From Candidatus Omnitrophota bacterium (lineage in GTDB: Bacteria; Omnitrophota; Gorgyraeia; Tantalellales; Tantalellaceae), in NCBI GenBank assembly GCA_049642065.1, contig JBAROK010000056.1, positions 1,072 through 65,071 on the forward strand: a stretch of DNA of 64,000 nt, read 5' to 3'. Under the pieces are notes generated by a model, which ran no database searches, was not told the DNA's origin, and saw only the letters and a program-made list of their open reading frames with translations. Made by a program: the position numbers and the translations under genes. Each line of letters opens with the position of its first letter. The stretch's first letter is position 1. Below are positions 18,777 to 63,397 of the stretch, one piece after another.

Positions 18777-21700
18777 TTACAGTGAGTGCAGGAACTGCTC
18801 AGAGGCACGCATTTTTTCGTCAAGGCCCTTCCAAGAAACGCGTTCTGCAGGTTTTAGGACGATCATACCATTTACAAGTCTTCCCGGAGCCTGCTTGAAA
18901 GCGTCTATAATATCACTGTCTTTTGTTATTATACCCAGGATAGCCGCAATCATATCTTTTAACCTGGCCCGGCGTTCTCTTTTTAGGTTATTTCTCTTAT
19001 CGAAAAGATCCATTACAGATAAAGCTAGAGCAGAACGAATATAGAACGGAACTGCAGTAAATGTTTCACTTGCGATCTCGCCTTCTTCTTTTATACAAAA
19101 TATCCTGGATTTATATTTTGCTTTCAAATCCCCGTTATTCTGATCGAAGAATTTTCCGTCTGCGAATATTAATGCTCTGACATTTTCATCTTCATCTACA
19201 AGCCGCAGCAACGTACCTATAGCCTTATCCCTGCTTGAGTCTCCCACAAGATAAGGTAGCGGCACTATAGAAAAACCGTAATCCCCCTTATACATTCTTC
19301 TCTTCAGTTCGCTTGCCATCTGAACTTCTTTCGCGAACACTGTTTCATTATAAACAGGATACGCTATTATGCGGGTCTCTTTGGGAAAACGTGCTGCGCC
19401 CAGCATTAACCTGGACAGCCATTGTCCCATAGTATCCACATTCTTTTTCCTTCTGACGGTTTCTTCTTTTTCCCTGGCAGTCTGTTCGGAATGGCTACTT
19501 CCCGAGTACATTTCCGAATCCAACACATCGCTGGCCGTTTCGGAAAAATCATCGTCACTCATTACTCTTTCTTCAAAACCGCTTGCCACTTCCCTGTTGA
19601 ACAATACTTCCAGCCTTTCCAACACATCGCTTAACATCTTTCCGCCAACATCTTTTCCGTTCTCCGGTGGCATATCTTCGCTTTCAGCCTTGTCTGGGGT
19701 TGATACATCTGCTTTGGTATCAGCTCCGATTATCCCAAGATCTTTCAAGTCCTCTTCGGTTAGATACTTGAACGTAAGATCCATGATATGTTCGACGGCT
19801 TCCATAGCATTTTTGACACGTTTAGTCGCCGGAGAATCCCCAACTACCGAATATATTCGTTTTCTTATCCTGTCGAAACTTAAATAAAGTCGCCTCATCT
19901 GTTTGCGAGCAATAAATTCTACCATTTCGGCTGATTTCCGTTCTCTTTTTTCAAAAAGAACGGCGCCAAATGCTTCTATCTGACTGAGCTTATCTATAAA
20001 TTCCGGTTTATTCAAATCCATGAAGATCGATTTCAGCCCGGTACCTTGAGACTTCCCGGGCACCATATCTTGTATACAAAATTCCTGCAGGTTACGCATA
20101 AGAGCTGGATAATATAGACCGGTAATATCGTTTATATCTTTTGTAATGGTTTCTCTAGTAATCGTCGTAGTCTCTCCCGCCTTGGCGCCTCTACTTCTAT
20201 ACTGGACAGGCAACTCTTCACCAAACATAATAATTGTACCTCTCATGTTCCGTGCCTTAGCTTCCATCATTGCTTTATCGGCTTCCTGAATGGCCTCCAT
20301 AGCGTTGCCGAGATTCTCTTTTTCTATGCCTCTAACACCAATAGTCACTGCTATTTCGTCATTTTCCCTAAGGCCTTCGGGCCTTAACTTCTTTACGTTA
20401 GTCTGGATATTGCGGGCTACTATCTTGGCATTCGCAGCGGTAGCTTCGGGAATTACCACCATGAACTCCTCTCCACCCCAACGGAAAACGACATCAGAAC
20501 CACGAACCGTCCTGAGAATAGCGTTAGATACCGCTGTCAGCACCCTGTCACCGAAAGTATGTTTTTCCGGATAAGTGTCGTTAAAACGTTTAAATTTATC
20601 AATGTCAATAAAAAGTATAGACGCCTGGCTCATGGTAGTAAGACGCGGATTGACTTTATGTTCAAAATACCACTTATTAAATAGTCCCGTGAGCTGATCC
20701 CTGTACTTCGCCTCCTGGGCGGCCCAGCTGTTGATGAGTTTTATCCTGACCTTGTCACCTTTCATGGGGCTTATATCGAAAAGCATCTCCTGGACCATTT
20801 CTGTACTACCGTATTTATCCGCATCCGCTTCGAGGTTCTGGGCTTCAATATTCTCTGGCAGTTTAGACCTGTCAAAGATACGCAGGCTTCTAAGACCGTA
20901 CCCAAGCGTATCGTTAACTATAATCTCACCGTTCTCATCGGTATCTATTACCCATTGCCATCCGCATTCCCCGCGACTTGCATACTCTCTCTGCTCTTCT
21001 ATTAATCCTTCCAATATTTCCTTCTGTTTAGTTGGCGTGATGCCTGGTCTATACAAACGCCTCAAAACTCTACACATATATGATTTCTCGTTTTTTCCTC
21101 TTACAGTAGAAGGATTGGACATATAACCGGAAAAAGTTCTGCTACATGAAAACTGACATGTGAGAACACCCTGAGGAACATCCAGTATATAATCAAAGGT
21201 GTCAACATCGCCCATTCCCCTTAGCTGCTGTTCGACTATCTGCCCTTCATAAGTACGCAGATACGCTCTTTTCCTGGCTATACCCTTGGCGAAATCAACG
21301 CCAGTATTACTCTCCCGGGAAAAGAGTTCTCTTAGTATATCCGCCATGTCCTTGTTACCCGTATATCCACTGGCTGGTTCTAGATCTGCAGAAGGATCCA
21401 TGAATCCGTATACACGTTTCATGCAATCTTCATCTGTCATGCCCATTAATGCTGGAATGCTTATTACGCTGTATTCCCGGTTAGTATCGTAATCTCTAGG
21501 AACATTAGGAGCAGGCCTGTATCCCATGGATCTAAGAAGCAGAATTGCCCGGTCTCCCAGACTTACAACTATGCCCTCCTTATCATCACTTTTCGCAACG
21601 TCTATAGCAGCATTGACTCTCAACAGGAAAGAAGCCGCAAAATCCGTATCAATGCCGAGATTACTCCAAAGGCTCTTTATCTGTATGGTAGATGCCAGGA

Positions 21701-23261
21701 AGGACAACGCGCCCTCCGACAATATTCCTTGATTGCCAGAGAGAAGGTTCATATAAGGACTCACGTAGCCCTGCTCATTGACAAATTCCGGGTTGATAGC
21801 GATATACGATATACCGTTCGCTTCAAGAATGTCGTGTAAATTTTTCGAATGAAAACCGCCTGTAACCAGAATGCTTGCTTCAGCACCGGTTTCTAGCATA
21901 TTCTGCTGCACGTTATATACAAAAGTTTCATCTCTTTTATCTGCCAGAGCGTAGAACACCGTCATATTAGAGAAGCCGTAGGATACGTATAAAGCGTCCT
22001 CTTCTAAATTGGATACTTCACCCGAGTTTGCCTTTAAGAATGCCAACACTTCGGCAATATTTACGGTTCTTTTCGCGGTTTCTAGCTCTTGCCTGTTCAA
22101 TTTCAGGTTAAACATCTTTTCAAGCAGCTGCACCTGACGGATATACCCCAGGGTTCTTCTCTCTTTTTCTGTACTGCAAAGCACTTCGCTTAACCCGTCC
22201 TCTATTTGGCTCAGTTCCGTAAAAAGGACCTCTTCGTCAATGCCCCCGTAAACAGCCAGGTATTTACTATAGGCATAAAGGTTTGGATATAAACCGGCAT
22301 CTATCCCCACCTCTTTTGCTTTTTCCATAAGGAAAATGTGAAATTCGCCCTCTGTTATCTGACCAGATTCATACAGCCCTGCGGAGCTAAGAAGCTGGAG
22401 GCGTTCGTATTTTGAAAGCCTTTCAGAAAGAATGCTTACAATTATTTGTCTTTCGTGTTCGGCTTTTTCAAAATCAATATCTCTTTCTTTAACGAGAAGA
22501 TCCGACAGCTTAACCAGATTCGGAGTTTTTTCGATAGGATAGGAATACTTCGTTGCCATCCTGAAAAGATACGGCAGATATTTTTCTAGCCGGATGTTGT
22601 TGGAGTCAAAAAGTATTTGGTTATTTAGAAACGTTTTAAGGTCGACACTAAAAGTTTCTTCTTTGACCGCGTTAAAAATAGAGGAAGCTTTAAAAAGAAA
22701 CTCATCTATCTTATCCTTGTATTCGAGAATGGTCCTGTAGACCAAGAGGTTATCTTCGTAAAGATCGGTATTCTCTATCCCTGCAAGTTGAACTTTTTCT
22801 GGATGGAATACGCGATACGATTCAGCCCCGGTGACTCTTCCGGACTTCATGTACTTATTTACTATATCCCTTTTTACGAATGGATCCTTTATGTTTTCAA
22901 GGATATCCAAATCGTAATCACCGGTAGCCCCCTCAAGATTCACAAGGCTTACATCGTATTTTTTAACTATCCAATCTATAAGACCGTACACCGCTTTTTG
23001 TGCGGCATAGTTACAATGCGCGTCTTTTATATGGAAAACTACTTTGCCGCTTTTACCATTGAACCTTGAATCTACATAACCCAGGCGTTTAGGAATAAGA
23101 ACATTCTCAACATTAATAGTTGCCGCCTCAGATGACGAAGTATATTGATAAGCTGCGTGTTTATCTTCACTGCGGGAATAGGCAATATCCACCGGTACAG
23201 TATTTGCGATAAATACCGCCAGGACTATGACAGATATTATTTTTATAAAACGTTTGTTCAT
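18777..23261 (-). CDS. Large (1494 aa) signal-anchored multidomain protein with a central GGDEF diguanylate cyclase domain. The flanking regions are unassigned.
   Basis: The N-terminal hydrophobic segment is MNKRFIKIISVIVLAVFIANTVPV. The GGDEF domain spans roughly aa 850-1015: LTGLFNKWYFEH...SILFIDIDKFKRFND...RGSDVVFRWGGEEFMVV, with the RxxD I-site and an intact GGEEF encoded near 20462-20476. The N-terminal region has an HxxDxH...Q...LVNLEG pattern vaguely ChaN/Tiki-like. The C-terminal 480 aa are unrecognised. Confidence 0.7.
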   Translation of the reverse strand: MNKRFIKIISVIVLAVFIANTVPVDIAYSRSEDKHAAYQYTSSSEAATINVENVLIPKRLGYVDSRFNGKSGKVVFHIKDAHCNYAAQKAVYGLIDWIVKKYDVSLVNLEGATGDYDLDILENIKDPFVKRDIVNKYMKSGRVTGAESYRVFHPEKVQLAGIENTDLYEDNLLVYRTILEYKDKIDEFLFKASSIFNAVKEETFSVDLKTFLNNQILFDSNNIRLEKYLPYLFRMATKYSYPIEKTPNLVKLSDLLVKERDIDFEKAEHERQIIVSILSERLSKYERLQLLSSAGLYESGQITEGEFHIFLMEKAKEVGIDAGLYPNLYAYSKYLAVYGGIDEEVLFTELSQIEDGLSEVLCSTEKERRTLGYIRQVQLLEKMFNLKLNRQELETAKRTVNIAEVLAFLKANSGEVSNLEEDALYVSYGFSNMTVFYALADKRDETFVYNVQQNMLETGAEASILVTGGFHSKNLHDILEANGISYIAINPEFVNEQGYVSPYMNLLSGNQGILSEGALSFLASTIQIKSLWSNLGIDTDFAASFLLRVNAAIDVAKSDDKEGIVVSLGDRAILLLRSMGYRPAPNVPRDYDTNREYSVISIPALMGMTDEDCMKRVYGFMDPSADLEPASGYTGNKDMADILRELFSRESNTGVDFAKGIARKRAYLRTYEGQIVEQQLRGMGDVDTFDYILDVPQGVLTCQFSCSRTFSGYMSNPSTVRGKNEKSYMCRVLRRLYRPGITPTKQKEILEGLIEEQREYASRGECGWQWVIDTDENGEIIVNDTLGYGLRSLRIFDRSKLPENIEAQNLEADADKYGSTEMVQEMLFDISPMKGDKVRIKLINSWAAQEAKYRDQLTGLFNKWYFEHKVNPRLTTMSQASILFIDIDKFKRFNDTYPEKHTFGDRVLTAVSNAILRTVRGSDVVFRWGGEEFMVVIPEATAANAKIVARNIQTNVKKLRPEGLRENDEIAVTIGVRGIEKENLGNAMEAIQEADKAMMEAKARNMRGTIIMFGEELPVQYRSRGAKAGETTTITRETITKDINDITGLYYPALMRNLQEFCIQDMVPGKSQGTGLKSIFMDLNKPEFIDKLSQIEAFGAVLFEKRERKSAEMVEFIARKQMRRLYLSFDRIRKRIYSVVGDSPATKRVKNAMEAVEHIMDLTFKYLTEEDLKDLGIIGADTKADVSTPDKAESEDMPPENGKDVGGKMLSDVLERLEVLFNREVASGFEERVMSDDDFSETASDVLDSEMYSGSSHSEQTAREKEETVRRKKNVDTMGQWLSRLMLGAARFPKETRIIAYPVYNETVFAKEVQMASELKRRMYKGDYGFSIVPLPYLVGDSSRDKAIGTLLRLVDEDENVRALIFADGKFFDQNNGDLKAKYKSRIFCIKEEGEIASETFTAVPFYIRSALALSVMDLFDKRNNLKRERRARLKDMIAAILGIITKDSDIIDAFKQAPGRLVNGMIVLKPAERVSWKGLDEKMRASEQFLHSL

Positions 23262-37021: not shown

Positions 37022-38512
37022 ATGGTTCTAACGATGAGTTTATCAAAAGAAAAGACTAACCTTCTAATCGGGCTGGCGGTTCTTACCGTTTCATTTGCCC
37101 TCATCAGGCTAAAAACGCTGGGGCATCTGTTGATGTGGGATGAGGCGTGGAACATCCTTTCCTTAAGAGCGTTCATTGCAGAGGCCGTAAGAGACCCTTT
37201 TTACTGGTACTACCGGTTCCACCCGCCCTTATATATGTTTTTTGCGAAGTTCCTTAATCCTTTCGGCGATAATTTTGCCGTAAGAGCGGAAGCGCTTTCC
37301 CTGGTTTTCTCATATGGAACGTTTATTACGGTATATTTTTTAAGTTACCGTATCGGTGGCTGGAGATACGCCTGGCTAAGCGGACTCATCCTGTGTTTCA
37401 TGCCGATATCAATAGGCTACGACAGCTGGGTAAAAAGAGACAGCTTGGCTATGTTCATGGGGTACCTGTCTCTCTTACTAGTGGTAGACAAAAGGTTCCT
37501 ATTCTCCGCAATAGCGCTGGGACTTTCTTTTTTAAGCAAGGAAAGTGCGCTTTTTTTCAGCTTGCCGGTCGCGTTTATGATCTTTACAACAGGCGGCAAG
37601 AAAAAAACCAGGATATTCGTGATGTTCTTACTGATCATTGCCCTAATGACGGCCTGGTGGTATATCCCTTTAAGCAACCTTACAAAGAACGTGAACGCTT
37701 TTTACCTTTCAGAAGATTATTACGGGAAAATGTGGATTCATTCACCGTTATATTACATTAAGAAACTTGTGCCTGATATCGGTATTGGCGGGATCTTGCT
37801 CTTTATTGTGGGACTCATCTTTCTGCCGTATTTTTCCAGGATAAAAAGACGCGCTGAAATATCCCTGCCTGTAATCATATGCTTTTGCGTATACGTGCCC
37901 ATATCTCTGGTTATTGCCACAAAGACCCCTTGGCTTTCTTATTCGGCTGCTCCGGCCCTTGCAATGATAGCAGGCGGCGGAGCGCTGTTTATATTCGGAA
38001 GAGCTTATTTTTCACGGATCATGCGTTCTTTACTTTTTCTTGTGCTGGCTTTCATCGTATTCACGGGAGTTACCTTTTCTTATCCTGTGTATCACATGAA
38101 AACCTATCCTAATGGATGGCCGGGCGCACAATCTTCCTGGAAACTTGCTGAGTACCTTAACGAACATATGAAAGATGATGACAGGTTAATGATAACCGAT
38201 TTTGCGTATTGGCGGATGCCAACTTGCCCTGTTTTTATTTACTACTGGAAGCCTCACGAGATTATGATAATAAAAGGCACTCAAACTGCTGCAACGATAC
38301 TTAAGAGAATGAAGGAACTCAAGATATCCTGGTTCGTAGTGGCAGATTCACCGGATCCTGCATACAATTACCACGCTCTTGTAAAAAAGATGGAGGTCCT
38401 GCTTCCAAATAAACCTACTCCTGTGGGATGGTCTTACGTGTGGAACGTCTCTACGACCTTGTCTGATGATTCTTCAGAAAAGACGCCTGCTGAACTTCTT
38501 CCTGCGACTTAG
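37022..38512 (+). CDS. ArnT/PMT-family (GT39/GT83-like) polytopic membrane glycosyltransferase.
   Basis: At least 10 TM helices. The N-terminal LGHLLMWDEAWNI loop is typical of the dolichyl/undecaprenyl-phosphate-sugar transferase fold. Confidence 0.5.
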   Translation: MVLTMSLSKEKTNLLIGLAVLTVSFALIRLKTLGHLLMWDEAWNILSLRAFIAEAVRDPFYWYYRFHPPLYMFFAKFLNPFGDNFAVRAEALSLVFSYGTFITVYFLSYRIGGWRYAWLSGLILCFMPISIGYDSWVKRDSLAMFMGYLSLLLVVDKRFLFSAIALGLSFLSKESALFFSLPVAFMIFTTGGKKKTRIFVMFLLIIALMTAWWYIPLSNLTKNVNAFYLSEDYYGKMWIHSPLYYIKKLVPDIGIGGILLFIVGLIFLPYFSRIKRRAEISLPVIICFCVYVPISLVIATKTPWLSYSAAPALAMIAGGGALFIFGRAYFSRIMRSLLFLVLAFIVFTGVTFSYPVYHMKTYPNGWPGAQSSWKLAEYLNEHMKDDDRLMITDFAYWRMPTCPVFIYYWKPHEIMIIKGTQTAATILKRMKELKISWFVVADSPDPAYNYHALVKKMEVLLPNKPTPVGWSYVWNVSTTLSDDSSEKTPAELLPAT

Positions 38513-51747: not shown

Positions 51748-53610
51748 TTATTTATTCATCGGTAAGATAATAGTAGCGGTCGTACCTGCGCCAGGTTTGC
51801 TTGTATATTTCATCTCTCCGCCATGCGCTTTAACAATACCGTAACACACAGATAGCCCTAGACCGGTACCGTGGTCCTTAGTGGTAAAAAAGGGATCGAA
51901 TATCTTCTGCAAATCTGCTTCGGATATTCCGTCTCCCGTATCCTTGATATCTATCCAGATATTACCACCTTTTAAAGATGTCATTATAGTTATATTTCCC
52001 CCTTGGGGCATAGCGTCAGCAGAGTTTCTCATTAAGTTAACGAATATCTCATGCATCTGTTTCTCGTCTGCTACCACCAAGGGAAGCGCAGGATCCAACA
52101 CCGTCTCTACCTTCACATCTTTTAACTCAAGCTGATGTTCGAGTATCTGCACCGCAAAATTTATAGCTTTATTCATATCCATTTCTATAAGCTCTTTTTT
52201 GCTAGGCTTAGAGAATAAAAGCAACCTCTCAATTATGCTTTTAGCGCGGTGGCACTGGTCCATGATGATCCCGAGACTGTCTCTAATTATTTCACTCTTT
52301 GGATCTTCCATCAAGGATATCTGGGCCCGGCCGGATATAACCATGAGCGGATTATTGACTTCGTGAGCCATATCGGATACAAGCTTACCAAGCTGCGCCA
52401 ATCTTTGAGACTCCTTCACTCTCTCTCTTTCAGTGATATCCCGATCTACCCCCCTATACCCTAGTAGCTCACCTTTCTCGTCGAGCACAGGGAGTCCACT
52501 CGTTTCGACCATTAAAACATCTCCATTTTTATGTATAAGATAATTGATATAATTCTCAAATTTGCCTTTATTTTTTATAACCTCTAATGCTTTAGCTTTG
52601 AATGGCTCTCGTTGTGTTGGCGGGAACAAATCATAAAAATACTTTCCTACTACTTCCCCAGGAAGATAACCTATAACTTTTACCGAAGCAGAACTAGCAT
52701 AGGTATATTTACCGGCCGGATCTATTTCCCATATCCAGTCACCAACGTTCTTTGAAATATCTTCAAAACGTTTCTCGGCATCCCTTAATACTTCGATTGA
52801 TACCGTAGATTTTTTAAGTGTTTCTGCCATTTCATTGAAAGATTGTGCAAGGTCGCCGATTTCATCGCTGCTTTTCGTTTGAACCCTATAGTCCAACTCC
52901 CCTTTAGCTATCCTTCTCGTTGCGTCAACAAGCTGTCTTACCGGCCTTAGAACCAGAGTTACGATTAAGGCACTGATAATGATGAGTATAACCGTTAAGG
53001 CAACAACAATGTTAGCTGCAGTACGCTCAGTCTTTTGCATCAATATTTTCGCACTCTCTAGGGAAACACCTATATCTACAATTCCTATTCTTTTTGCCGT
53101 GGTTGAATCCGCTTTTCCTATCTCAGATGTAGCTTTATCCTCTTCCTCTTTTAGAAACAAGCCCTCTTCGGTAACCGAAACATCTATGCCTTCACTTACA
53201 ATGAAAGCTGTTATATCGTAATGATCATTCCTAGGCATGTGATGGTATTTTATGATCGGCTTGTTCGTCCTGTGTATCAGTTCATCAATCGGCATCAACT
53301 CAGCTTTTATTCCCTTGGCTTCCCCCTGCGCCAAAATCTTGCCTTTAATATTCCGTATCACACAATAAATCACATCAGGCTGGTTCATGGTCCCTATAAC
53401 TAGATTCTCAATCATCTCCCTGTTGCCCGTTAATACACCATACTCCGAATTATAGCCCAGCCCCCTGGCTAAGATCATCCCTTTTTCCAGATATTGGGAA
53501 CTTATGAGTCTTTGTTGTGATTTTGTAAAAAAGAAAGCTACCGTTACACTTACCAATATCACAAGCCCCATTACCAGAAAAATCGATTTTGTACGTATAC
53601 TTATTTTCAT
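51748..53610 (-). CDS. Sensor histidine kinase (TM, periplasmic domain, TM, HAMP, PAS, HisKA, HATPase).
   Basis: Two TM segments flank a periplasmic region of about 180 aa. HAMP is RPVRQLVDATRRIAKGELDYRV, the H-box is VSDMAHEVNNPL and the G-box is GTGLGLSV. Confidence 0.85.
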   Translation of the reverse strand: MKISIRTKSIFLVMGLVILVSVTVAFFFTKSQQRLISSQYLEKGMILARGLGYNSEYGVLTGNREMIENLVIGTMNQPDVIYCVIRNIKGKILAQGEAKGIKAELMPIDELIHRTNKPIIKYHHMPRNDHYDITAFIVSEGIDVSVTEEGLFLKEEEDKATSEIGKADSTTAKRIGIVDIGVSLESAKILMQKTERTAANIVVALTVILIIISALIVTLVLRPVRQLVDATRRIAKGELDYRVQTKSSDEIGDLAQSFNEMAETLKKSTVSIEVLRDAEKRFEDISKNVGDWIWEIDPAGKYTYASSASVKVIGYLPGEVVGKYFYDLFPPTQREPFKAKALEVIKNKGKFENYINYLIHKNGDVLMVETSGLPVLDEKGELLGYRGVDRDITERERVKESQRLAQLGKLVSDMAHEVNNPLMVISGRAQISLMEDPKSEIIRDSLGIIMDQCHRAKSIIERLLLFSKPSKKELIEMDMNKAINFAVQILEHQLELKDVKVETVLDPALPLVVADEKQMHEIFVNLMRNSADAMPQGGNITIMTSLKGGNIWIDIKDTGDGISEADLQKIFDPFFTTKDHGTGLGLSVCYGIVKAHGGEMKYTSKPGAGTTATIILPMNK

Positions 53611-53640
53611 GTTTATAATTTAGTTTTTCAAAACACGCTG

Positions 53641-54621
53641 TTATTTCCCGTAAACTATAGCCCCATCCAAAAGGTTCTGAGGAATGTTAATGCCAATATT
53701 TTCTGCTGTTTTCACATTGATCACTAACTTTGTTTTCCTGGGGAGTTTTATCGACATATCGTGCGGGAGAACACCTTTCAGCAATTCAACGGCTACTTTT
53801 GCCGTCTGCTGTCCTATATCATAATAATCACACTCCAGGGCCATAAGAGCACCTGCTTTTACAAAGTGCTCGGAAAATGCCATGAAAGGAATCTTTTCCT
53901 TTAATGTGGAAAGGATAATGTGGCGTGCTGTCGCGGAATTATATATCATGGGATCGACACTCGCCCAAAGACAATCCGCCTCTTTGAAAATCTTATCCAG
54001 CATAGGTGATATTTCGTTTTTGGCATATATCGGTTTTGATATTAATTTTAGCCCTGCTTTTGCTGCTGCGAGTTCGGCTTCTCTGACGATTTCCGATTTG
54101 GTTCTCTTATCGTAAAGCATCCCAACCTTTTTAGCGCGAGGTATGACCCTTTTTAATACTTTGAACTGAACTTCAATAGGTATGTTGAGGCATACTCCGG
54201 AAATATTGCCTCCCGGCCTTCTCAATGAATCCACAATACCGCTTTCAACGGGATTAAGCACCATGGTAAAAACTACCGGAATATCTTTGATGCTTTTTCT
54301 AGCAAAGACGGCAGCTTCAGTACCTATAACAAAAACCAGGTTAGCTTTAGACTCGTCAATTTCTTTTACAAGTTCTGCGGTTTTCTCAACAAATTTTTGG
54401 AAATCATATTCTTTATATATGACATTGTATACTTCATCGCTCAGCTCCTTCTGAAATCCCGAATAAGCTTCTCTATATGGCTGGATGGACCTGGATTTGA
54501 TAACACATATCGTCTGTTGTTCAGCGGCAAGAACAGCTTCAGAGCATATCGTCCCTAAAAACAACATGCAAATGACAATATATAAAAGAATTATTTTTTT
54601 AGACATAATCGTTTCAAACAT
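53641..54621 (-). CDS. Periplasmic substrate-binding protein of the ABC_sub_bind (PF04392-like) family.
   Basis: Signal peptide plus an alpha/beta fold. The C-terminal KLVINVKTAENIGINIPQNLL is typical of this family. Confidence 0.6.
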   Translation of the reverse strand: MFETIMSKKIILLYIVICMLFLGTICSEAVLAAEQQTICVIKSRSIQPYREAYSGFQKELSDEVYNVIYKEYDFQKFVEKTAELVKEIDESKANLVFVIGTEAAVFARKSIKDIPVVFTMVLNPVESGIVDSLRRPGGNISGVCLNIPIEVQFKVLKRVIPRAKKVGMLYDKRTKSEIVREAELAAAKAGLKLISKPIYAKNEISPMLDKIFKEADCLWASVDPMIYNSATARHIILSTLKEKIPFMAFSEHFVKAGALMALECDYYDIGQQTAKVAVELLKGVLPHDMSIKLPRKTKLVINVKTAENIGINIPQNLLDGAIVYGK

Positions 54622-54628
54622 TTATTCC

Positions 54629-56533
54629 TTAGAACTTCAGCCTCAGTTCAGCCAAATACCTTCTACCTATCTGCTCCCCTGTTCCTGGAGACTCTACATG
54701 TTTATCCAAAAGAATGTTGGTCCCGCTTATTGCAAGCTCCATATTCTTGGTTATCCAGTATCCTAACCTGGCGTTCAATGTGCTGTACTTGCCTATGGCA
54801 GTTTGAGTGTTCCCTACATTCTCACCATGCCCTACATAATTCCAGTAGAGCGATGCTTCCACTTTATCTTCATAGTTCATAAGTACTCCCAGATTCCAAA
54901 TATTTTTTGGGGTGAACCTAATGAAAGCGTTCTCATCGTAGTTGACAAGCTGGTGAGTAGTATTCGCGAAACACTTCATCCAATCCGTTGCTTTATACTC
55001 AATGCTGTTCTCTATGCCCCAGGTAGTGGCGTTTCCCTGATTTAAATACCCAGTTGTGATTATAACCGGAGCAAAACTCTCGAATCCAGTTCTCGTAGAA
55101 TCTATAAAATTCTTTATATAACTAACAAAAAAATCGCTATTAATTTTAACTTTTCTATCGAAAAACTGACCTTCATATCCAACTTCACCTGTTACTATTT
55201 TTTCGACATCGAGTTCTTTCTGGCCGAAATTATGCCCCATAGGAGTTGTTCTTTGGTATATATCAAGATAATATTCGCTCAGGGTAGGTGCGCGGAAAGC
55301 GTTCCCCAGCGAAGCTCTGATGAAATTGTCTTTAAATAACGTGAAAAGTCCTGCTATCCTTCCCGTAAGCTGTAACCCGGAAATTGTATAGTAATCCATC
55401 CTACCTGAACTTATAACACGGAAGTTGTCCATCACTTCCCAATCATCCTGTATATACCCGTTCCATATAAGCTGTGTCTGTGGGCTAACGGTCGGTCCCC
55501 ATATATTAGCTTTTGCGAAATCGTATCTAAGCCCCGTGCCGATCGTAACGTCATGGTTCTCAAGCGGTTCAAAATCATAACTTAGTTCAGTTTCTATTAC
55601 ATCTATTTTGGTTTTGAACCGTTTTGAATCGGCATCATAATCGCCAATAAAATGATTCCAGAACAGTTTACCTTTAAACCCATCCAGAACACAGTCCAGC
55701 TGCGTATACACATACCCTATATCATTTTCTCCCGTAAAAACAGGCAAAGTGGAAGAGATGAATGGGTGTTCTCCAATAACCCCGCCTCCCGATAATGACA
55801 CTTTAGAGTTATCATCAATATAATATTCCACTTCCGCATTGACCTGTCCTAAGTTAGTCTTGTAGCTATCCAGATAAAAATAATCGTAACGATCCCATCC
55901 TGCAGAAACTTTATACCCCCAGTCCTCTATCCTCTGGCCGTGCACAACTGAACTTACTGTGTATACGTCGTGGAAATTCGTTTTTTGAGTAAAAAGAGTC
56001 CCGTTAATCTCTTCGGGGGTTTTCGTAATAATGTTTATAAGACCGTTAAAAGCATTTGCCCCGTACAGTGACGCTACCGGCCCCTTAACGACTTCTATCT
56101 GCTTTACCTCATCCGGCTGGATGCTGATCGTAGACCACAGGAAAAATCCCTGCGCAGGAAGATAAAGGTTCCTCCCGTCCACAAGCAGAAGACTGGTATT
56201 ATTGATTATCTCGTTAAACCCTCGTATAGATATGTCAGGCTGAGACACGGTAGTCCTCATCACGTTCACACCTGGTACCTGGCTCAGGGACTCATAAAGA
56301 TTTATCCCACCGTACATCCTTATATCTTCCTCTGTTAAGACATAAGTACTAGCAGAAGCCTCCGAAAGTGGCTGTAGTTTCTTACCCGGAGTAAACACCA
56401 TGGGTATCTCTTCAAAAAGTGCCAGTTCAGCCGGAGGCTGTGGTGGGGGTGGTGCTTGTGCAAAAGTGAAATCGATACCTACACTTAAGCAAAATACCGA
56501 GATTATACTTACTGCTAATATTTTTTTAACCAT
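54629..56533 (-). CDS. TonB-dependent outer membrane receptor.
   Basis: An N-terminal signal peptide is followed by a plug domain (LTEEDIRMYGGINLYESLSQVPGV) and a beta-barrel ending in terminal F (LRLKF). Confidence 0.85.
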   Translation of the reverse strand: MVKKILAVSIISVFCLSVGIDFTFAQAPPPPQPPAELALFEEIPMVFTPGKKLQPLSEASASTYVLTEEDIRMYGGINLYESLSQVPGVNVMRTTVSQPDISIRGFNEIINNTSLLLVDGRNLYLPAQGFFLWSTISIQPDEVKQIEVVKGPVASLYGANAFNGLINIITKTPEEINGTLFTQKTNFHDVYTVSSVVHGQRIEDWGYKVSAGWDRYDYFYLDSYKTNLGQVNAEVEYYIDDNSKVSLSGGGVIGEHPFISSTLPVFTGENDIGYVYTQLDCVLDGFKGKLFWNHFIGDYDADSKRFKTKIDVIETELSYDFEPLENHDVTIGTGLRYDFAKANIWGPTVSPQTQLIWNGYIQDDWEVMDNFRVISSGRMDYYTISGLQLTGRIAGLFTLFKDNFIRASLGNAFRAPTLSEYYLDIYQRTTPMGHNFGQKELDVEKIVTGEVGYEGQFFDRKVKINSDFFVSYIKNFIDSTRTGFESFAPVIITTGYLNQGNATTWGIENSIEYKATDWMKCFANTTHQLVNYDENAFIRFTPKNIWNLGVLMNYEDKVEASLYWNYVGHGENVGNTQTAIGKYSTLNARLGYWITKNMELAISGTNILLDKHVESPGTGEQIGRRYLAELRLKF

Positions 56534-56777: not shown

Positions 56778-58292
56778 CTATTTTATGTTCCGGGATGCGG
56801 GTAATATCGCCTCAGTCACTTTCGGAAGATCACCGTATAAACCCTGGTATATTTCGTTATACCTGTCTTTTCCACCGATAAAAGCAAAGGTAAGCGGCAT
56901 TACCTCTTTTGCCTGTTCACTCATAAAACGTGAGATATTTTGTATATCCCACTGCGCGTGAGCGTCTTCTCTAAGGCGCGATATATGATACATCTCTCTG
57001 GCGTTAAGCCTTATAAGCACCCGTTTGCGATGCGCGTTCGTGAGGATATATGGCGCAGCTAACGGGACCTCTCTATTTATCGCATCATAAACTTTATTGG
57101 TCTTTTCAACAATCTCCATGAAATCCTTTTCCATACCTATTTCTTTTATAGATTCAGGGATCGTAACGCCTAATCCCGGATCATATGCTTGTGCAGTGAT
57201 CGTTGACATACGGTGACGTTTCAGCTGGCCGAAACAGGCCGATGACAAAGCAACATTAAAAGTAAGGTTAGCATATTCGAATTCTCGCAGCATCGAATCG
57301 TAGAACTGCATATTACGCCAGCTTGCCTTGAAAATATCCATCTTCTGTTTCTTGCTCAGCTCTTTAACTATTGATCTGCACTTTTCATAAGACATGCCCG
57401 TGGAGGTATGAAGAAGAGATGAGGCCACAACATCATCACCGTCTTTTGTATATTCAACAAGCTGCACCTCTTTTAGCACATCAGCGGAAACGCTTTCTGA
57501 AACAACTCCGGGAAGACTTCCCGCCAACTCTTTTAACTCAGGGTAAGTTTTAAGATCTTTTTCGTTCGCTTCATGAAAAAGGACAATTGAAGGCGCTACT
57601 TCCGATATCTGTTCGTAAACAGTACGTCCAAGTTCATTTACCTCTGCTAATGGATGAGATGCGAATCTCCTGAGCATGAGTTCCAGAGTACGGGCGTTCA
57701 GCGTCTGGCCCACTTGTGACTCGGTTGCCAATGCTGTTATGTAACGCGCATCTTCCTTGGCCCACCCTTCCAAAAGATTATGATTTTTAGGGTCAGCGGC
57801 AAGATCCGGATATTTAGTGAATACATAATCTTTTAACTTCTCATAAAACTTGAAGTATGCTTCGTTCTGCTCGTGAATCATATTCATAAACGTCTTCTCA
57901 AGATCCGTACCCTTGATCTCCTGAGGGACAACAAAATCTTTGTCCAGCGTTATGTAACGTTGGGATTTTTCCGTATAAGCACATAACCTGAATTTTTCGA
58001 GTTCTTCCATAACAAACCGCGAAACACCGAGTATATCAAGGTTGAATACCGCATGTTCTGCGACCGAGTGGTGCCCCATTTTGAAAATAATAGTGGAATT
58101 GGATTTCCTGGATCTTTCTACTTCTTCCCTAGCGGATTTTCTTATCTCATTGATCGGACGTGAATCCCGGCTTATACGCGCGTATGCCGCGGACAGTACT
58201 TCCGGCGTCAGATCTTCTCTTTTTCCTGTCTGTTCCTCAATTTCACGTAAAACGCCTGTGTCGACATTATATCCTGCCAGATATACTTTCAT
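56778..58292 (-). CDS. thyX: FAD-dependent thymidylate synthase ThyX, tandem-duplicated (two Thy1 repeats).
   Basis: Repeat 1 has GHHSVAEHAVFNL...FRLCAYTEKSQRY, where RHR has been lost but SQRY is kept. Repeat 2 has QLKRHRMST... and NAREMYHISRLREDAHAQWDIQ, a close match to the ThyX LRADSHAQWEIQ motif. 504 aa, about twice the canonical size. Confidence 0.7.
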   Translation of the reverse strand: MKVYLAGYNVDTGVLREIEEQTGKREDLTPEVLSAAYARISRDSRPINEIRKSAREEVERSRKSNSTIIFKMGHHSVAEHAVFNLDILGVSRFVMEELEKFRLCAYTEKSQRYITLDKDFVVPQEIKGTDLEKTFMNMIHEQNEAYFKFYEKLKDYVFTKYPDLAADPKNHNLLEGWAKEDARYITALATESQVGQTLNARTLELMLRRFASHPLAEVNELGRTVYEQISEVAPSIVLFHEANEKDLKTYPELKELAGSLPGVVSESVSADVLKEVQLVEYTKDGDDVVASSLLHTSTGMSYEKCRSIVKELSKKQKMDIFKASWRNMQFYDSMLREFEYANLTFNVALSSACFGQLKRHRMSTITAQAYDPGLGVTIPESIKEIGMEKDFMEIVEKTNKVYDAINREVPLAAPYILTNAHRKRVLIRLNAREMYHISRLREDAHAQWDIQNISRFMSEQAKEVMPLTFAFIGGKDRYNEIYQGLYGDLPKVTEAILPASRNIK

Positions 58293-58447
58293 CGTGTTCC
58301 ATCCTTAATAACAGTTAATTTATTAGAGTTCTGAAGGATTATCATTGTCACTAAAGAGTGACCTTCATAATGATAGCATAAATAATTAGGATTTTAAACC
58401 TATTATCTGCTATAGGCATAAATGCTTATGATGTAACGATTTAATCG

Positions 58448-58774
58448 TTACATCATATTAATTGGTGATACCACATAAATATATCTTAGTGCATCTTCGC
58501 CCGCATTTTTTACATCATGTTTTGTATTCGGCGGGATGTAAACAAGGGTTCCTTTTTCTGCGGTTATTGGATCTTTTTGGTCGCAGGATATTTCTGCCTT
58601 GCCCTGCAGGACAACTATAGCTTCTTCCTTTTCATCGGTGCTATGCTCTCCTACGGATTCGCCGGCCTTAAGTGTAACACTGCCTGATTTCATGCCGAAT
58701 GTATCAGGACTACCTCCAAGCAATCTCTGATACCCTTCTTTTCCTTCTAATTTGATTACTTTAGGTTCTGACAT
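58448..58774 (-). CDS. Cupin domain protein.
   Basis: Two cupin motifs: G..GEHSTDEKEE and YIPPNTKHDVKN; 108 aa. It lies 3 nt downstream of larB. Confidence 0.6.
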   Translation of the reverse strand: MSEPKVIKLEGKEGYQRLLGGSPDTFGMKSGSVTLKAGESVGEHSTDEKEEAIVVLQGKAEISCDQKDPITAEKGTLVYIPPNTKHDVKNAGEDALRYIYVVSPINMM

Positions 58775-58776
58775 AT

Positions 58777-59514
58777 CTATTTCCTGTTAATAAGCGATGC
58801 CATGTATCCGGCACCAAACCCGTTATCAATATTAACTGCGGCAACACCGGGAGCGCAGCTATTTAGCATAGTAAGAAGCGGCGCTAACCCTTCAAAATTA
58901 GCGCCGTAACCTACACTTGTAGGTACAGCGATCACGGGGCGGCTTACCATTCCTCCAACCAAGCTTGGAAGAGCCCCGTCCATGCCTGCCACTACAACAA
59001 CGACATTCGCACTTGTCAGTTTCTTGCGACTGGCAAGCATCCTATGCATGCCGGCAACACCCATATCATAGGAACGTTCAACTTTGTTCCCGAGCATCTC
59101 TGCAGTAACTGCAGCTTCTTCGGCTATAGGCATATCAGAAGTTCCCGCAGAAGCCACAAATATCGTTTTCCCTGTTTTTCTTTTTTTCTTACCGGCAAAT
59201 ATTATCCTCGCGTCACTGTAATAAACGGCATCTTTTCTTGCATCTTTTACTGCGTTGTAAATATCCCGGCTGGCCCTGGTCGCCATTATCGTACCTGTCC
59301 TGCGCCTTTTAAATATCTCGACAATCTGCTTCTCGCTCTTTCCTTCACAAAATATAACCTCTGGGAACCCCTTGCGAAGATCCCTATGGGTATCTATCTT
59401 TGCAAAACCCATATCATCAAAAGGAAAAGATTTTAGTGCGCACATCGCCTTAACGGTACTCATTTTGCCGGATTCCACGTCTTTTAGTATCTTTTTTATT
59501 TGTTTTTTATCCAT
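58777..59514 (-). CDS. larB: LarB, the PurE-like nicotinic acid adenine dinucleotide carboxylase/hydrolase that makes P2CMN.
   Basis: The PurE-like region is IFVASAGTSDMPIAEEA, with a second half VVVAGMDGALPSLVGG...PTSVGYG; 245 aa. Confidence 0.75.
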   Translation of the reverse strand: MDKKQIKKILKDVESGKMSTVKAMCALKSFPFDDMGFAKIDTHRDLRKGFPEVIFCEGKSEKQIVEIFKRRRTGTIMATRASRDIYNAVKDARKDAVYYSDARIIFAGKKKRKTGKTIFVASAGTSDMPIAEEAAVTAEMLGNKVERSYDMGVAGMHRMLASRKKLTSANVVVVVAGMDGALPSLVGGMVSRPVIAVPTSVGYGANFEGLAPLLTMLNSCAPGVAAVNIDNGFGAGYMASLINRK

Positions 59515-60311
59515 GGCATATCCTCGTCCATGCTGCCTGTTCTATATCCCTCCGGATCAATTTCAACTTTTTTATAACCAAGATCTGTAAGCTTCTTAAT
59601 AATATACTCTTTCACCTCTTTCGTCAATTCAGATACCTGTTCGGGAGAAACCTCCACTCGGACATATTCATCATAAACACGAACTCTTACATCGGTAAAA
59701 CCCCTACCTGAGATAATATCTTCAGCCTTCTGAACATTTTCAAGCTGTTCAGCATCAATTCTTTTATCATAAACAAATCTTGTCAAAAAACAAGATTGCG
59801 ACGGCATGTCCCAATTCTCAAGACCTAATTCTTTTGCTAAAACCCTGATATCGTCCTTTGAGAGGCCAGCTTCCTTTAATGGACTTTTAATGGCGAGCTC
59901 TTCTATTGCTCTCTCTCCTGGCCTGTACTGATCTGTATCATCTGCATTTGACCCTTCCGCGACAAAGTTAACATTTTCTTCATTTGCAATTTTTAATAAT
60001 TCTGAAAATACCCGTTTTTTACAATAGTAGCATCTTTCGATGGAATTATTTAATACATTCTCTTCCTCTAGTTCGTTAGAGCTTATAATGATGTGTTTTG
60101 CACCGAGGCTTTTCGCTATCCTTTTTGCACTATCTATTTCTTTTTTTGGTCTTGCAGGAGATACTGCCGTAACCGCTATTACTTTGTGGCCTAACGCATC
60201 GGTAGCAGCCTTGAGTAAGAGACCACTGTCTACGCCGCCCGAAAAAGCGACCAATACGCTTCCCATATTTTTTAATATTCCCGTAAGAATATTATATTTG
60301 GAGACATTCAT
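59496..60311 (-). CDS. larE: LarE-family PP-loop ATP pyrophosphatase (sulfur insertase for the nickel-pincer nucleotide).
   Basis: PP-loop is SGGVDS and the catalytic-Cys region is PSQSCFLTRF. A CYYC pair gives three Cys in total, as in the Fe-S-dependent catalytic LarE subclass. Confidence 0.7.
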   Translation of the reverse strand: MNVSKYNILTGILKNMGSVLVAFSGGVDSGLLLKAATDALGHKVIAVTAVSPARPKKEIDSAKRIAKSLGAKHIIISSNELEEENVLNNSIERCYYCKKRVFSELLKIANEENVNFVAEGSNADDTDQYRPGERAIEELAIKSPLKEAGLSKDDIRVLAKELGLENWDMPSQSCFLTRFVYDKRIDAEQLENVQKAEDIISGRGFTDVRVRVYDEYVRVEVSPEQVSELTKEVKEYIIKKLTDLGYKKVEIDPEGYRTGSMDEDMPWIKNK

Positions 60312-60349
60312 AGTTACTTTAATGTGTTTTGGGAGGATTTTTTGCGGGA

Positions 60350-60817
60350 TCAGATCTTATCTTCTGACTGTTTCCCAAAAATACTGGTTATCCGTATTTT
60401 CCATACTCCTACCGCTAAAAGCATAGGCAGCGGAATGTTCCATTCCTTGTCAGAGTAATGGCTTACTATTATTTTCAGTGCTTCACGTTTTTCATCGTTC
60501 CCAGTGACTTCAATGGCTTCACCGAACCCGATGATAGACCGGTAAGAAAAATTGAATTCACATGCCTTTGTTTCGTGCTCTACAAGTTCTGTTTCGCTTT
60601 CGAACTCAAAACAAACATTGGGATTATTCTTAAGGTAATCTATTTTCATGCCTTTCTTGGCGGAGTGAAAATAGATGAAGTCTCCATCAAACCCGAACGA
60701 CAAAGGTACTATATAAGGTTTATCGTCTTTAGATAATCCCAAACGCAGCACTTCGGCTTTATTGATAGCTTCGTGCATGAGACTCTTATCGGTTATTTCC
60801 TGGTGTTTTCTTCTCAT
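60350..60817 (-). CDS. Pyridoxamine 5'-phosphate oxidase-like FMN-binding split-barrel protein.
   Basis: 155 aa with a split-barrel pattern (NimA/general stress 26-like). Confidence 0.5.
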   Translation of the reverse strand: MRRKHQEITDKSLMHEAINKAEVLRLGLSKDDKPYIVPLSFGFDGDFIYFHSAKKGMKIDYLKNNPNVCFEFESETELVEHETKACEFNFSYRSIIGFGEAIEVTGNDEKREALKIIVSHYSDKEWNIPLPMLLAVGVWKIRITSIFGKQSEDKI

Positions 60818-60838
60818 CGCCCGGAAGTTCCTTGGCGC

Positions 60839-61942
60839 TTATTTGTTAAGTTCTTCGATGGCTTCAGCAGTTATTTCATCTATTAGTTCTTTTACGGGCA
60901 CTATTTTCTTGATCTTTGAAACATTAGTCCCGGTAAGTACTACCGCGTTGTCTATGTCCCCTTCCACAGCGTCTATCAGCGCTTTAGCGATACAATATTG
61001 GACCGTAGAAGGATCACATGTTCTGAGACACTGATAGTTGCAATCGAATTCTTTTCTTTCGCCGCGCAACACTTCATCAAGAAACTTCGTCCTTATTACT
61101 TTTGCTGGCATACCCACTGGACTTTGTATGAAAACTATATCATCGTCTCCCGAATCAACATAAAGCTGTTTAAATTCATCAGCTGCTGAACACTCAGAAG
61201 TAGCTACAAACCTTGTCCCAAGCTGCACACCTTCTGCCCCCAATTTCAGGAATTTGGCCATGTCTTTCCCGTCAAATATGCCGCCGGCTGCTATAACAGG
61301 TATGTGTACCCCATATTTTTTTTCATATTCAGCGGTCAGCTCTAAAATTTCTTTTATCGTGTTCTCTAAAAGCGGCTTATCTTTCATCTCATCCCTAAGA
61401 GATTCCAGCTCTTCTAAACTGTAACCCGCTATGTGCCCTCCCGACAATGGTCCCTCAACTACAAGAGCATCCGGGAACCTGTCATAACGCCTCTTCCAGG
61501 TCTTAAGCAGGAGTTTAGCCCCTCTAGCAGAAGCAATCAATGGAATTAGTTTTGTCGAAGACCCTTCTGCAAATTCTGGCATACTTATAGGCAGTCCCGC
61601 TCCCGAAATAATATAATCCGCTTTTTCTTCTGCGGCAGTCCTTACCATATCTTCATAATTGCTTAAAGCCACCATTATATTCACACCGATAACTCCATCA
61701 GACAGTTCTCTTGCACGCCTTATCTCCATCCTCAGATGTTCCCTTGAAGACTTAGGTATATCTGCCCTGTTTTCCTTAGTATCAGGGGGAAGTCCCACGC
61801 TGGCAATCGTTCCCGCAGCTCCGCAGTTAGCAACTGCACTGGCCAAGGAAGAAGTAGACACTCTTACACCCATCCCCCCCTGAATGATGGGAACTTTTAT
61901 CTCTAGATCTCCTATAATTAAAGGCTTTAATGTGTTTTTCAT
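60839..61942 (-). CDS. NAD(P)H-dependent flavin oxidoreductase (nitronate monooxygenase / FabK-like).
   Basis: The N-terminus VPIIQGGMGVRVSTSSLASAVANCGAAGTIAS is the NMO FMN-binding signature. Confidence 0.75.
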   Translation of the reverse strand: MKNTLKPLIIGDLEIKVPIIQGGMGVRVSTSSLASAVANCGAAGTIASVGLPPDTKENRADIPKSSREHLRMEIRRARELSDGVIGVNIMVALSNYEDMVRTAAEEKADYIISGAGLPISMPEFAEGSSTKLIPLIASARGAKLLLKTWKRRYDRFPDALVVEGPLSGGHIAGYSLEELESLRDEMKDKPLLENTIKEILELTAEYEKKYGVHIPVIAAGGIFDGKDMAKFLKLGAEGVQLGTRFVATSECSAADEFKQLYVDSGDDDIVFIQSPVGMPAKVIRTKFLDEVLRGERKEFDCNYQCLRTCDPSTVQYCIAKALIDAVEGDIDNAVVLTGTNVSKIKKIVPVKELIDEITAEAIEELNK

Positions 61943-62260: not shown

Positions 62261-62566
62261 TTATTTCTTCCCGAAACCCTTTTTCATCTGTTTCTGGGAT
62301 TTCTTCATTTCTTTTTCCATGGCCTTCTTAGCTTTTTCTGCTTCTTTCTGAGCGCGTTTTAGTGTCCTCTCGGCCTTCCTGTCAGCTCTGATTGCCTTTG
62401 CTTCTTCAGGAGTCTTCCCTCGTGTGGCAATCCAATCACCAGCCTTATCAATAACGGAATCTTTTGTTACATCTGCTTGTTGACCTCCGCTTCTCTGCGC
62501 TTCGCATACAGTGAACATACCCAGCACCATAGCAAATACCACCAGTAATGTTATAACCTTTCTCAT
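62261..62566 (-). CDS. Small secreted lysine-rich protein.
   Basis: Signal peptide MRKVITLLVVFAMVLGMFTVCEA is followed by a highly charged K/E/A-rich helix. Confidence 0.4.
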   Translation of the reverse strand: MRKVITLLVVFAMVLGMFTVCEAQRSGGQQADVTKDSVIDKAGDWIATRGKTPEEAKAIRADRKAERTLKRAQKEAEKAKKAMEKEMKKSQKQMKKGFGKK

Positions 62567-62674
62567 AATTCCTCCCTTCTTTATTATATAATTCTATCAC
62601 TATTTGTCGTTTTTATTAATCTTTTTATGACTTTTAAAATTTTAGAGCTTTCTGTGTATTACGATATTATTAAA

Positions 62675-63397
62675 TTACCCGATGAAAGATAGCTCTTCTA
62701 GGTGCTCCCTCAGATAAGAAATTGTCCGGAATTTCTTGCGGATCAAAGATCTTTTAAGCCCACAGCATATATTCTTTACTTCCTTCGGGAGAGTCTTATA
62801 TCTTTTGTTTCCTCCGATACAATCATAAAATATACGAATTAAATCATAAATGTCTTCATCTTTATTGCTTTTTTTAGAATCGTTCCAATGATACATATCT
62901 ACCAGTTTTAACTCAAAATTCAAGCCGAACCTATTAACTATAATGTTGTCCTGATGTAAATCCCCATGATACTCATTAAGAAAGTGTATTTCCTCTATAC
63001 CCTTAACGAGACTATAAAGCAGGTGGAGTCCTTGATAATAAGACAATCTTTTCCCGGGAAAATATTTTACAAAATTCGAAAGAAGTTCTCCTTCTACATA
63101 TTCAGAAACCAAAACTTTTATAGGGACCTTTTTGAAAACTAAGTTCTCTTCTGTGTGATAATGTATGAGGATTTTGCAATGACGTAGTTTATGCAGCTTT
63201 TTAGCATACAGGATTGCTGTTTTATTCTTATTATTCCTTTGTGGAAAGAATAGCTTGGCGGCTCTTTCTATTTTTGTATTTATCTCCCTGACTTTATATA
63301 CTTCCCCCTCCCATCCCGCTCCAAGCTGAGAGATGATTTCAAACTTCTTCGCAATAATTCTGCCAGGGGCTAAATCAAATTTTTCAATTCTTACCAT
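62675..63397 (-). CDS. Protein-kinase-like fold protein of the lipopolysaccharide (Kdo/WaaP) kinase family.
   Basis: Gly-loop is LGAGWEGEV, the lysine is RAAKLF and the catalytic loop is HGDLHQDNIIV, followed by KLVDMY; 240 aa. Confidence 0.5.
   Translation of the reverse strand: MVRIEKFDLAPGRIIAKKFEIISQLGAGWEGEVYKVREINTKIERAAKLFFPQRNNKNKTAILYAKKLHKLRHCKILIHYHTEENLVFKKVPIKVLVSEYVEGELLSNFVKYFPGKRLSYYQGLHLLYSLVKGIEEIHFLNEYHGDLHQDNIIVNRFGLNFELKLVDMYHWNDSKKSNKDEDIYDLIRIFYDCIGGNKRYKTLPKEVKNICCGLKRSLIRKKFRTISYLREHLEELSFIG

Follow-up and report, generated by a model that had tools for sequence, protein, structure and literature searches.

A conserved larE–larB–cupin gene unit without LarC in Candidatus Omnitrophota, a possible variant of the nickel-pincer cofactor operon

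LarB and LarE together form the established route to the mononucleotide of pyridinium-3,5-bisthiocarboxylic acid (P2TMN; PMC11796402, PMC13510736), which raises the question of what, if anything, stands in for LarC, the cytidine triphosphate (CTP)-dependent nickel cyclometallase, in an operon that encodes the first two proteins but not the third. Such an operon lies in a 64-kb stretch of DNA from a Candidatus Omnitrophota metagenome-assembled genome (MAG), referred to here as the window, to whose full length all coordinates refer. In the window larE and larB are followed directly by a gene for a small cupin, and an earlier annotation made from the letters alone (the original prediction) had placed these three genes in a five-gene operon together with two flavoenzymes. 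Comparison with related loci instead singles out larE–larB–cupin as a conserved unit, which is best read as a variant of the nickel-pincer cofactor operon from which LarC is excluded and in which the cupin occupies the LarC position. A conserved lar operon without LarC, with a cupin coupled or fused to LarB, is unusual.

Conservation of the larE–larB–cupin unit

The locus consists of five consecutive open reading frames (ORFs), all on the minus strand, which encode in order an NMO-family oxidoreductase, a PNPOx-like protein, LarE, LarB and the cupin. Their number, strand and position, as originally predicted, were borne out by an ORF check and family scans. Three of the five make up the unit considered here:

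59496..60311, minus strand: LarE, PP-loop ATP-dependent sulfur insertase of the tri-Cys type, 271 residues (TIGR00268, 302.1 bits, cutoff 150)
58777..59514, minus strand: LarB, nicotinic acid adenine dinucleotide (NaAD) carboxylase/hydrolase, that is, synthase of pyridinium-3,5-biscarboxylic acid mononucleotide (P2CMN), 245 residues (NF033503, 283.6 bits, cutoff 175)
58448..58774, minus strand: single-domain cupin, 108 residues (PF07883 Cupin_2, 55.3 bits, cutoff 27.2)

LarB and LarE are genuine members of their families, as had been claimed, both scoring above the equivalog cutoffs. Their genes overlap by 19 nucleotides (nt), in agreement with the original prediction, and the remaining spacings amount to 21 nt (NMO to PNPOx), 38 nt (PNPOx to LarE) and 2 nt (LarB to cupin) rather than the 22, 39 and 3 nt first given. 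The start of LarE is ambiguous (60266–60311), public gene calls giving either a 271-residue protein that begins 38 nt after PNPOx or a 256-residue one that begins about 45 nt further in.

Loci of the same type were gathered by looking up the genomic context of cupin homologues, by scanning metagenomes and by searching a representative library. The cupin of the Lar-linked clade lies directly after LarB in 11 distinct loci (the window, L005, L007, L011, L012, L013, L097, L098, L120/L121, L122 and L123), where its start falls between −14 and +15 nt relative to the LarB stop, and LarE is found upstream of LarB in every locus whose contig reaches far enough. The triad persists within flanks that are wholly different among the window, L007, L098 and L121. 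It also withstands considerable divergence, since the three genes of L098 and the window have drifted apart in parallel (53% identity for LarB, 41% for LarE and 52% for the cupin). Within a wider family of proteins of about 110 residues (244 representatives at E≤1e-10), the Lar-linked cupins fall into a single clade, and every member of that clade with known context adjoins LarB. Among the five genes of the locus, larE–larB–cupin is thus the conserved three-gene unit.

When 1.84 billion representatives were searched exhaustively with the cupin as query, a natural fusion came to light. The 363-residue protein P0214 comprises a full LarB in its N-terminal 246 residues (NF033503, 274 bits), a 13-residue linker and a Cupin_2 domain, with residues 260–362 being 52% identical to the window cupin. 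Two independent assemblies (Logan SRR28346263 and NCBI GCA_041309015.1) carry the fusion gene, which overlaps an upstream LarE gene (TIGR00268, 295 bits) by 22 nt. A fusion of this kind argues strongly for a joint action of LarB and the cupin in one process. Translationally coupled to LarB and, in one lineage, fused to it, the cupin is a partner dedicated to LarB; the tight coupling of the two Lar genes to the cupin that had been proposed for the window alone holds across the 11 loci, the fusion among them.

The surroundings of two of these genes hint at nickel. Downstream of the fusion gene (L121) lie nikR, with its RHH_1 and NikR_C domains, and then a gene for an OprB-family porin. A cupin-family member that is not linked to lar genes and is 43% identical (L108, 428–3040) follows an ECF (energy-coupling factor) S-component-like gene and is divergent from nikR and from a CbiM/NikM–PDGLE nickel/cobalt uptake gene. 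Both neighbourhoods are suggestive of a nickel connection, which is not systematic, as L108 is the only one of the unlinked family members with nickel genes (nikR, cbiM) nearby.

Two of the cupin-type loci present peculiarities of their own. On the short contig of L122, a second cupin-like ORF (566–829; …EVYYILEGRGRMYIG…IDIPPN) overlaps the Lar-linked cupin at the latter's end, so that the arrangement reads LarB–cupin–cupin. L013 (CAYPCX010000005.1) is labelled 'uncultured Planctomycetia', yet its three proteins LarB, LarE and cupin fall within the cupin clade of Omnitrophota; the mismatch may reflect a problem of taxonomic labelling or binning, or else a transfer within the PVC (Planctomycetota–Verrucomicrobiota–Chlamydiota) group.

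LarC and the position after LarB

Neither LarC (PF01969) nor LarA (PF09861) was found by Pfam scans among the window ORFs of at least 200 residues, seven of which were covered by precomputed annotations of the identical contig, and a LarC hidden Markov model run on all six frames of the 64 kb gave no match; in this respect the original prediction was right. The Pfam lists of the related cupin-type loci examined likewise contain no LarA. The absence of LarA is unremarkable, since about 15% of genomes carry larBCE without larA (PMC11796402) and users of the pincer cofactor other than LarA are known (PMC13524815).

The absence of LarC is of a different order when placed beside ordinary lar loci. 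The canonical larB–larC–larE operon of the Lactiplantibacillus plantarum type resembles the window in its overlapping genes and its genuine LarB and LarE equivalogs, and related loci of Omnitrophota, Atribacterota and Bacillota with the order larE–larB–larC share the larE–larB order itself. Both differ in possessing LarC, which is missing from the window operon and from the whole 64 kb, the 108-residue cupin being found in its position. In the nearest relatives without a cupin, the order is larE–larB–larC and LarC starts at or just past the LarB stop. Among 80 LarB loci surveyed in GTDB species representatives, a collection that lacks the window species (best match 70% identical), LarC lies within 10 kb of LarB in 47. 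When cupin-type loci with usable flanks are compared with other LarB loci having at least 1.5 kb downstream, LarC occurs in the fetched flanks of none of the former (0/8) and of most of the latter (45/69; Fisher p=5e-4, a value that overstates independence, the cupin loci coming from a handful of lineages). In the simplest interpretation, LarC and the cupin take each other's place in the slot that follows LarB.

A neighbour-joining tree of LarB is informative as to how this alternation may have arisen. The cupin-type loci of Omnitrophota group into a single clade, embedded among Omnitrophota LarBs that have LarC as the next gene (L093, L015 and L014); L098 and the fusion make up a second, more divergent LarB group. 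L093, a LarC-type locus, has ThyX and AA_permease in common with the window region, which indicates the same chromosomal neighbourhood, and L005, L011 and L093 all have a ThyX of 502–504 residues close to their lar genes. The tree topology supports a replacement at the same locus.

A separate observation from the survey concerns a conserved ORF of about 149 residues (L051, 1467–1916; cluster 10) near LarB in six loci of Syntrophaceae/deltaproteobacterial type without adjacent LarC. It is cyclophilin-like by eye and could be another lineage-specific Lar neighbour.

Predicted chemistry of the unit and roles for the cupin

LarB and LarE would be expected to retain their usual functions. The window LarB aligns over residues 8–244 with the solved structure of L. 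plantarum LarB (7MJ0; E=1.1e-69), including the C-terminal LNSC motif (LLTMLNSCAPG aligned to LLTMLNSCASG of 7MJ0), whose cysteine we take to be the equivalent of the catalytic Cys221 of L. plantarum LarB. LarE matches its L. plantarum counterpart (5UDQ; E=5.7e-41) and possesses the PP-loop SGGxDS motif (AFSGGVDS). A CxxC motif (ERCYYCKK) stands at the positions where L. plantarum LarE has W..A, and a further cysteine, in SQSCFLTRF, is aligned with the sacrificial Cys176 of that enzyme. The sequence thus fits the tri-Cys, [4Fe-4S]-type subclass of LarE, as originally proposed, with a predicted cluster. The tri-Cys signature was considered as a special feature of the operon and discarded as such: all close LarE relatives aligned carry it, those of LarC-type loci included.

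The cupin is predicted with high confidence by AlphaFold2 (AF2) to be a minimal all-β barrel (mean predicted local distance difference test score, pLDDT, of 93.7). Foldseek comparison of the model returns many cupins with a probability of 1.00, and its structural neighbours are generic small cupins: the Thermotoga maritima Mn protein TM1459, MJ0764 and archaeal phosphomannose isomerases. These minimal metal cupins, together with TM1287, resemble the window cupin in fold, in size and in the position of the putative metal motif (Foldseek E ~1e-7, TM ~0.7–0.8, 15–24% identity in structural alignments). Thirteen positions are invariant across 36 members of the cupin family, including H44, T46, E50, E51, Y79, H86, N90 and Y98. 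Set against the canonical G(X)5HXH(X)3-4E...H signature, the GEHST...EE...H motif of the family keeps the first histidine, the glutamate and the distal histidine invariant, and an invariant threonine takes the place of the second histidine (HxT). This substitution, and the linkage of the closer subfamily to LarB, distinguish the window cupin from these minimal cupins. In an alignment with TM1287-type cupins, H44, E50/E51 and H86 fall on the H-x-H-x3-E...H metal motif, from which a 2-His-1-carboxylate metal site made of His44, Glu50 (or Glu51) and His86 is predicted.

Comparison of the cupin with LarC (PF01969/TIGR00299) brings out a likeness of position rather than of structure. Both proteins are encoded directly after LarB, a metal site of histidine and acidic residues is plausible in each, and nikR adjoins the fusion locus. 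There is, however, no sequence or fold relationship between them: the cupin has 108 residues as against about 390–420 in LarC, and it possesses neither the CTP-binding LarC2 domain nor the His-rich LarC1 cluster (PMC13510736).

From family membership, LarB would carboxylate and hydrolyse NaAD to P2CMN, which the tri-Cys LarE would convert to the dithiocarboxylate P2TMN. The cupin, binding a metal ion through His44, Glu50 (or Glu51) and His86, might then perform or assist the delivery of nickel to P2TMN or its insertion, the step carried out by LarC in canonical operons. We consider it quite possible, if somewhat short of an even chance, that the cupin handles the metal step in this manner, be it nickel delivery or insertion in place of LarC, because it is mutually exclusive with LarC, retains a predicted free-metal site and has a nickel regulator as neighbour. 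The stronger version of this proposal, according to which the LarB-linked cupin would be a CTP-independent nickel insertase (cyclometallase) that replaces LarC, or would direct a different metal or a variant pincer cofactor, is unlikely. If it were true, LarB, LarE and a 108-residue cupin would suffice for pincer-cofactor synthesis throughout the Omnitrophota clade and in one or more other lineages. The cupins are in any event candidates for an alternative route to the C–Ni bond, for a nickel chaperone of the pathway or for a new kind of cofactor user.

Several observations weigh against assigning the metal step to the cupin. The fold search and the sequence and profile searches of the PDB return generic small cupins only and offer no functional lead. 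The cupin is fused to LarB, the first enzyme of the pathway, which is unexpected for an enzyme of the last step. LarC is described as the sole known cyclometallase (PMC13510736), the formation of a C–Ni bond is chemically demanding, and a cupin of 108 residues without a nucleotide-binding domain is unlikely to be a full substitute for it. Independent lineages among the cupin-type loci number only about two to four, and distant members of the cupin family (≤56% identity; L009 and L099–L118) have no lar genes nearby, which means that the family is not intrinsically a Lar protein family. Furthermore, 33 of the 80 ordinary LarB loci have no LarC nearby, so LarC may be encoded elsewhere. A LarC of the window MAG, whose proteins were recognised by accessions MGB2601xxx and MGB2651xxx, is not among the 120 listed matches in each of two LarC searches (queries L015 LarC and P0094), a weak negative because the expected identity of about 52–56% is at the edge of those 120 matches; the Omnitrophota matches listed come only from other MAGs with canonical larE–larB–larC (L093, L119). 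LarC diverges quickly (52% identical where LarB is 66%), and a copy in the window genome could therefore rank below the 120 matches listed.

If LarC is encoded elsewhere, the cupin could instead be a user of the cofactor, that is, a new client other than LarA that binds the nickel-pincer nucleotide (NPN) or a related pincer molecule. Clients of unrelated folds, namely the aldo-keto reductase (AKR)-type NphT and ornithine cyclodeaminase (OCD), adjoin lar genes in genomes without LarA (PMC13524815), and the cupin loci resemble them in placing a protein of unrelated fold beside lar genes at a LarA-less locus. The triad is tightly conserved and the cupin-type flanks examined contain no LarA, AKR or OCD gene, as would suit such a role. 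However, the clusters of the known users (NphT, Nat Chem 2026, PMC13524815; as well as the ornithine cyclodeaminase that depends on NPAD) hold LarC, and the exit of LarC from the operon whenever the cupin is present would be left unexplained. A free metal ion would fit the predicted complete 2-His-1-carboxylate site; known clients, by contrast, provide a single histidine, with or without a lysine, to the chelated nickel. A barrel of 108 residues is also small for a nucleotide cofactor together with a substrate, and clients are not known to be fused with LarB. A role as client is accordingly doubtful, though far from negligible.

The fusion could also be taken at face value, as pointing to a helper of LarB, for instance a metal-dependent enzyme, decarboxylase or hydrolase, which would provide CO2 or act on NaAD or AMP, with the exclusion of LarC being coincidental. 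The cupin is fused specifically to LarB, always follows LarB directly and never LarE, and bears remote similarity to TM1287, which is annotated as a putative oxalate decarboxylase. This similarity is nevertheless generic to the cupin fold, canonical LarB works without a partner (PMC11796402), and a helper function gives no reason for the exclusivity of cupin and LarC in the slot after LarB, all of which makes the explanation improbable.

Still harder to sustain is the notion that the cupin is functionally unrelated to the pathway, for instance a sugar-phosphate isomerase-like or stress protein, and was inserted after larB in an ancestor and retained by operon inertia. Its distant relatives do occur without lar genes, the cupin fold lends no functional specificity and a single clade of Omnitrophota accounts for most Lar-linked loci. 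Against this, the linkage outlasts the deep divergence noted above (LarE 41% identical) among entirely different flanks, reappears in one or more additional lineages (L098, L120/L121) and extends to an in-frame fusion in two assemblies, while all cupins of the Lar-linked clade with known context adjoin LarB. Mere persistence by inertia is, in consequence, a quite improbable account.

Whether the cupin-type operon, with the cupin as a putative metal-step protein, would have come to notice earlier depends on how lar neighbourhoods have been screened. The ornithine cyclodeaminase screen of Desguin in 2025 was reportedly anchored on LarE. No relevant paper in the literature searched, which did not extend to that LarE-anchored study, ties a cupin to Lar genes. 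The AKR-type NphT came out of a neighbourhood screen that used LarC as its anchor (PMC13524815) and could not, for that reason, see clusters without LarC.

Flavoenzymes and other neighbours

The two remaining genes of the five lie upstream of larE, and an inverted repeat marks the other end of the locus:

60839..61942, minus strand: NMO-family FMN oxidoreductase, 367 residues (PF03060, 194.7 bits)
60350..60817, minus strand: PNPOx-like protein, a Pyridox_ox_2/Nim-like flavoprotein, 155 residues (PF12900, 87.9 bits)
58427..58457, no strand assigned: inverted repeat with perfect 15-nt arms TATGATGTAACGATT / AATCGTTACATCATA and 1 nt between the arms

More specific identities were considered for both flavoenzymes and rejected. 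The NMO protein falls far below the threshold for the enoyl-ACP reductase II FabK (TIGR03151, 170.2 bits against a cutoff of 453.1) and is a generic PF03060 member only; the PNPOx-like protein likewise falls short of the Nim 5-nitroimidazole reductases (NF000261, 65 bits against a cutoff of 260) and is a generic Pyridox_ox_2 protein only.

The co-occurrence of LarB and LarE with the cupin, which the original prediction had proposed to examine by gene-neighbourhood analysis, extends to the 11 loci, but the flavoenzyme context does not. NMO adjoins the module only in the window species: in L005 its orthologue (84% identical) is upstream of larE at a distance of about 6.7 kb, with eight genes in between, two of which are on the opposite strand, and it was not found in the other cupin-type loci examined. 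PNPOx adjoins larE only in the window and in its nearest relative L011, and was not found in the other cupin-type loci of sufficient length (L005, L007, L012, L013, L097 and L098). Since the flavoenzymes do not travel with the triad, the five-gene operon shrinks to a three-gene module with two lineage-specific neighbours, and NMO and PNPOx are probably bystanders kept there by local synteny. That all five genes should serve one pathway, with NMO and PNPOx modifying or using the pincer nucleotide, is suggested by their common strand and short gaps in the window and by the PNPOx gene next to larE in L011, but is highly improbable and largely refuted by these comparative data. The comparison hence corrects the idea of the neighbouring flavoenzymes as members of the pathway.

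A promoter and terminator scan from NMO to the cupin found no convincing internal terminator, and promoter-like matches in this stretch are too frequent for interpretation. The inverted repeat overlaps the cupin stop codon and is not followed by a T-run; judging from its sequence, it could be a terminator hairpin at the end of the operon or a palindromic operator. The regions that flank nikR in L121 also contain short palindromes, with no motif clearly common to the window repeat.

Among the other genes of the window, an ORF of 496 residues (37022–38512) is without Pfam match, and one of 1,494 residues (18777–23261) has GGDEF as its sole recognised domain. Directly downstream of the cupin lies a ThyX of 504 residues with tandem Thy1 domains (56778–58292), followed by genes for a TonB-dependent receptor, an ABC_sub_bind (PF04392) protein and a PAS/HAMP histidine kinase (51748–56533), in an order that is kept in L005 and L011; none of these genes points to a particular metal. 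Upstream of NMO (62261–63397), the window encodes a lysine-rich, secreted-looking protein of 101 residues and a stand-alone eukaryotic-type Ser/Thr kinase domain of 240 residues, both of which recur on the upstream side of the L011 lar module.

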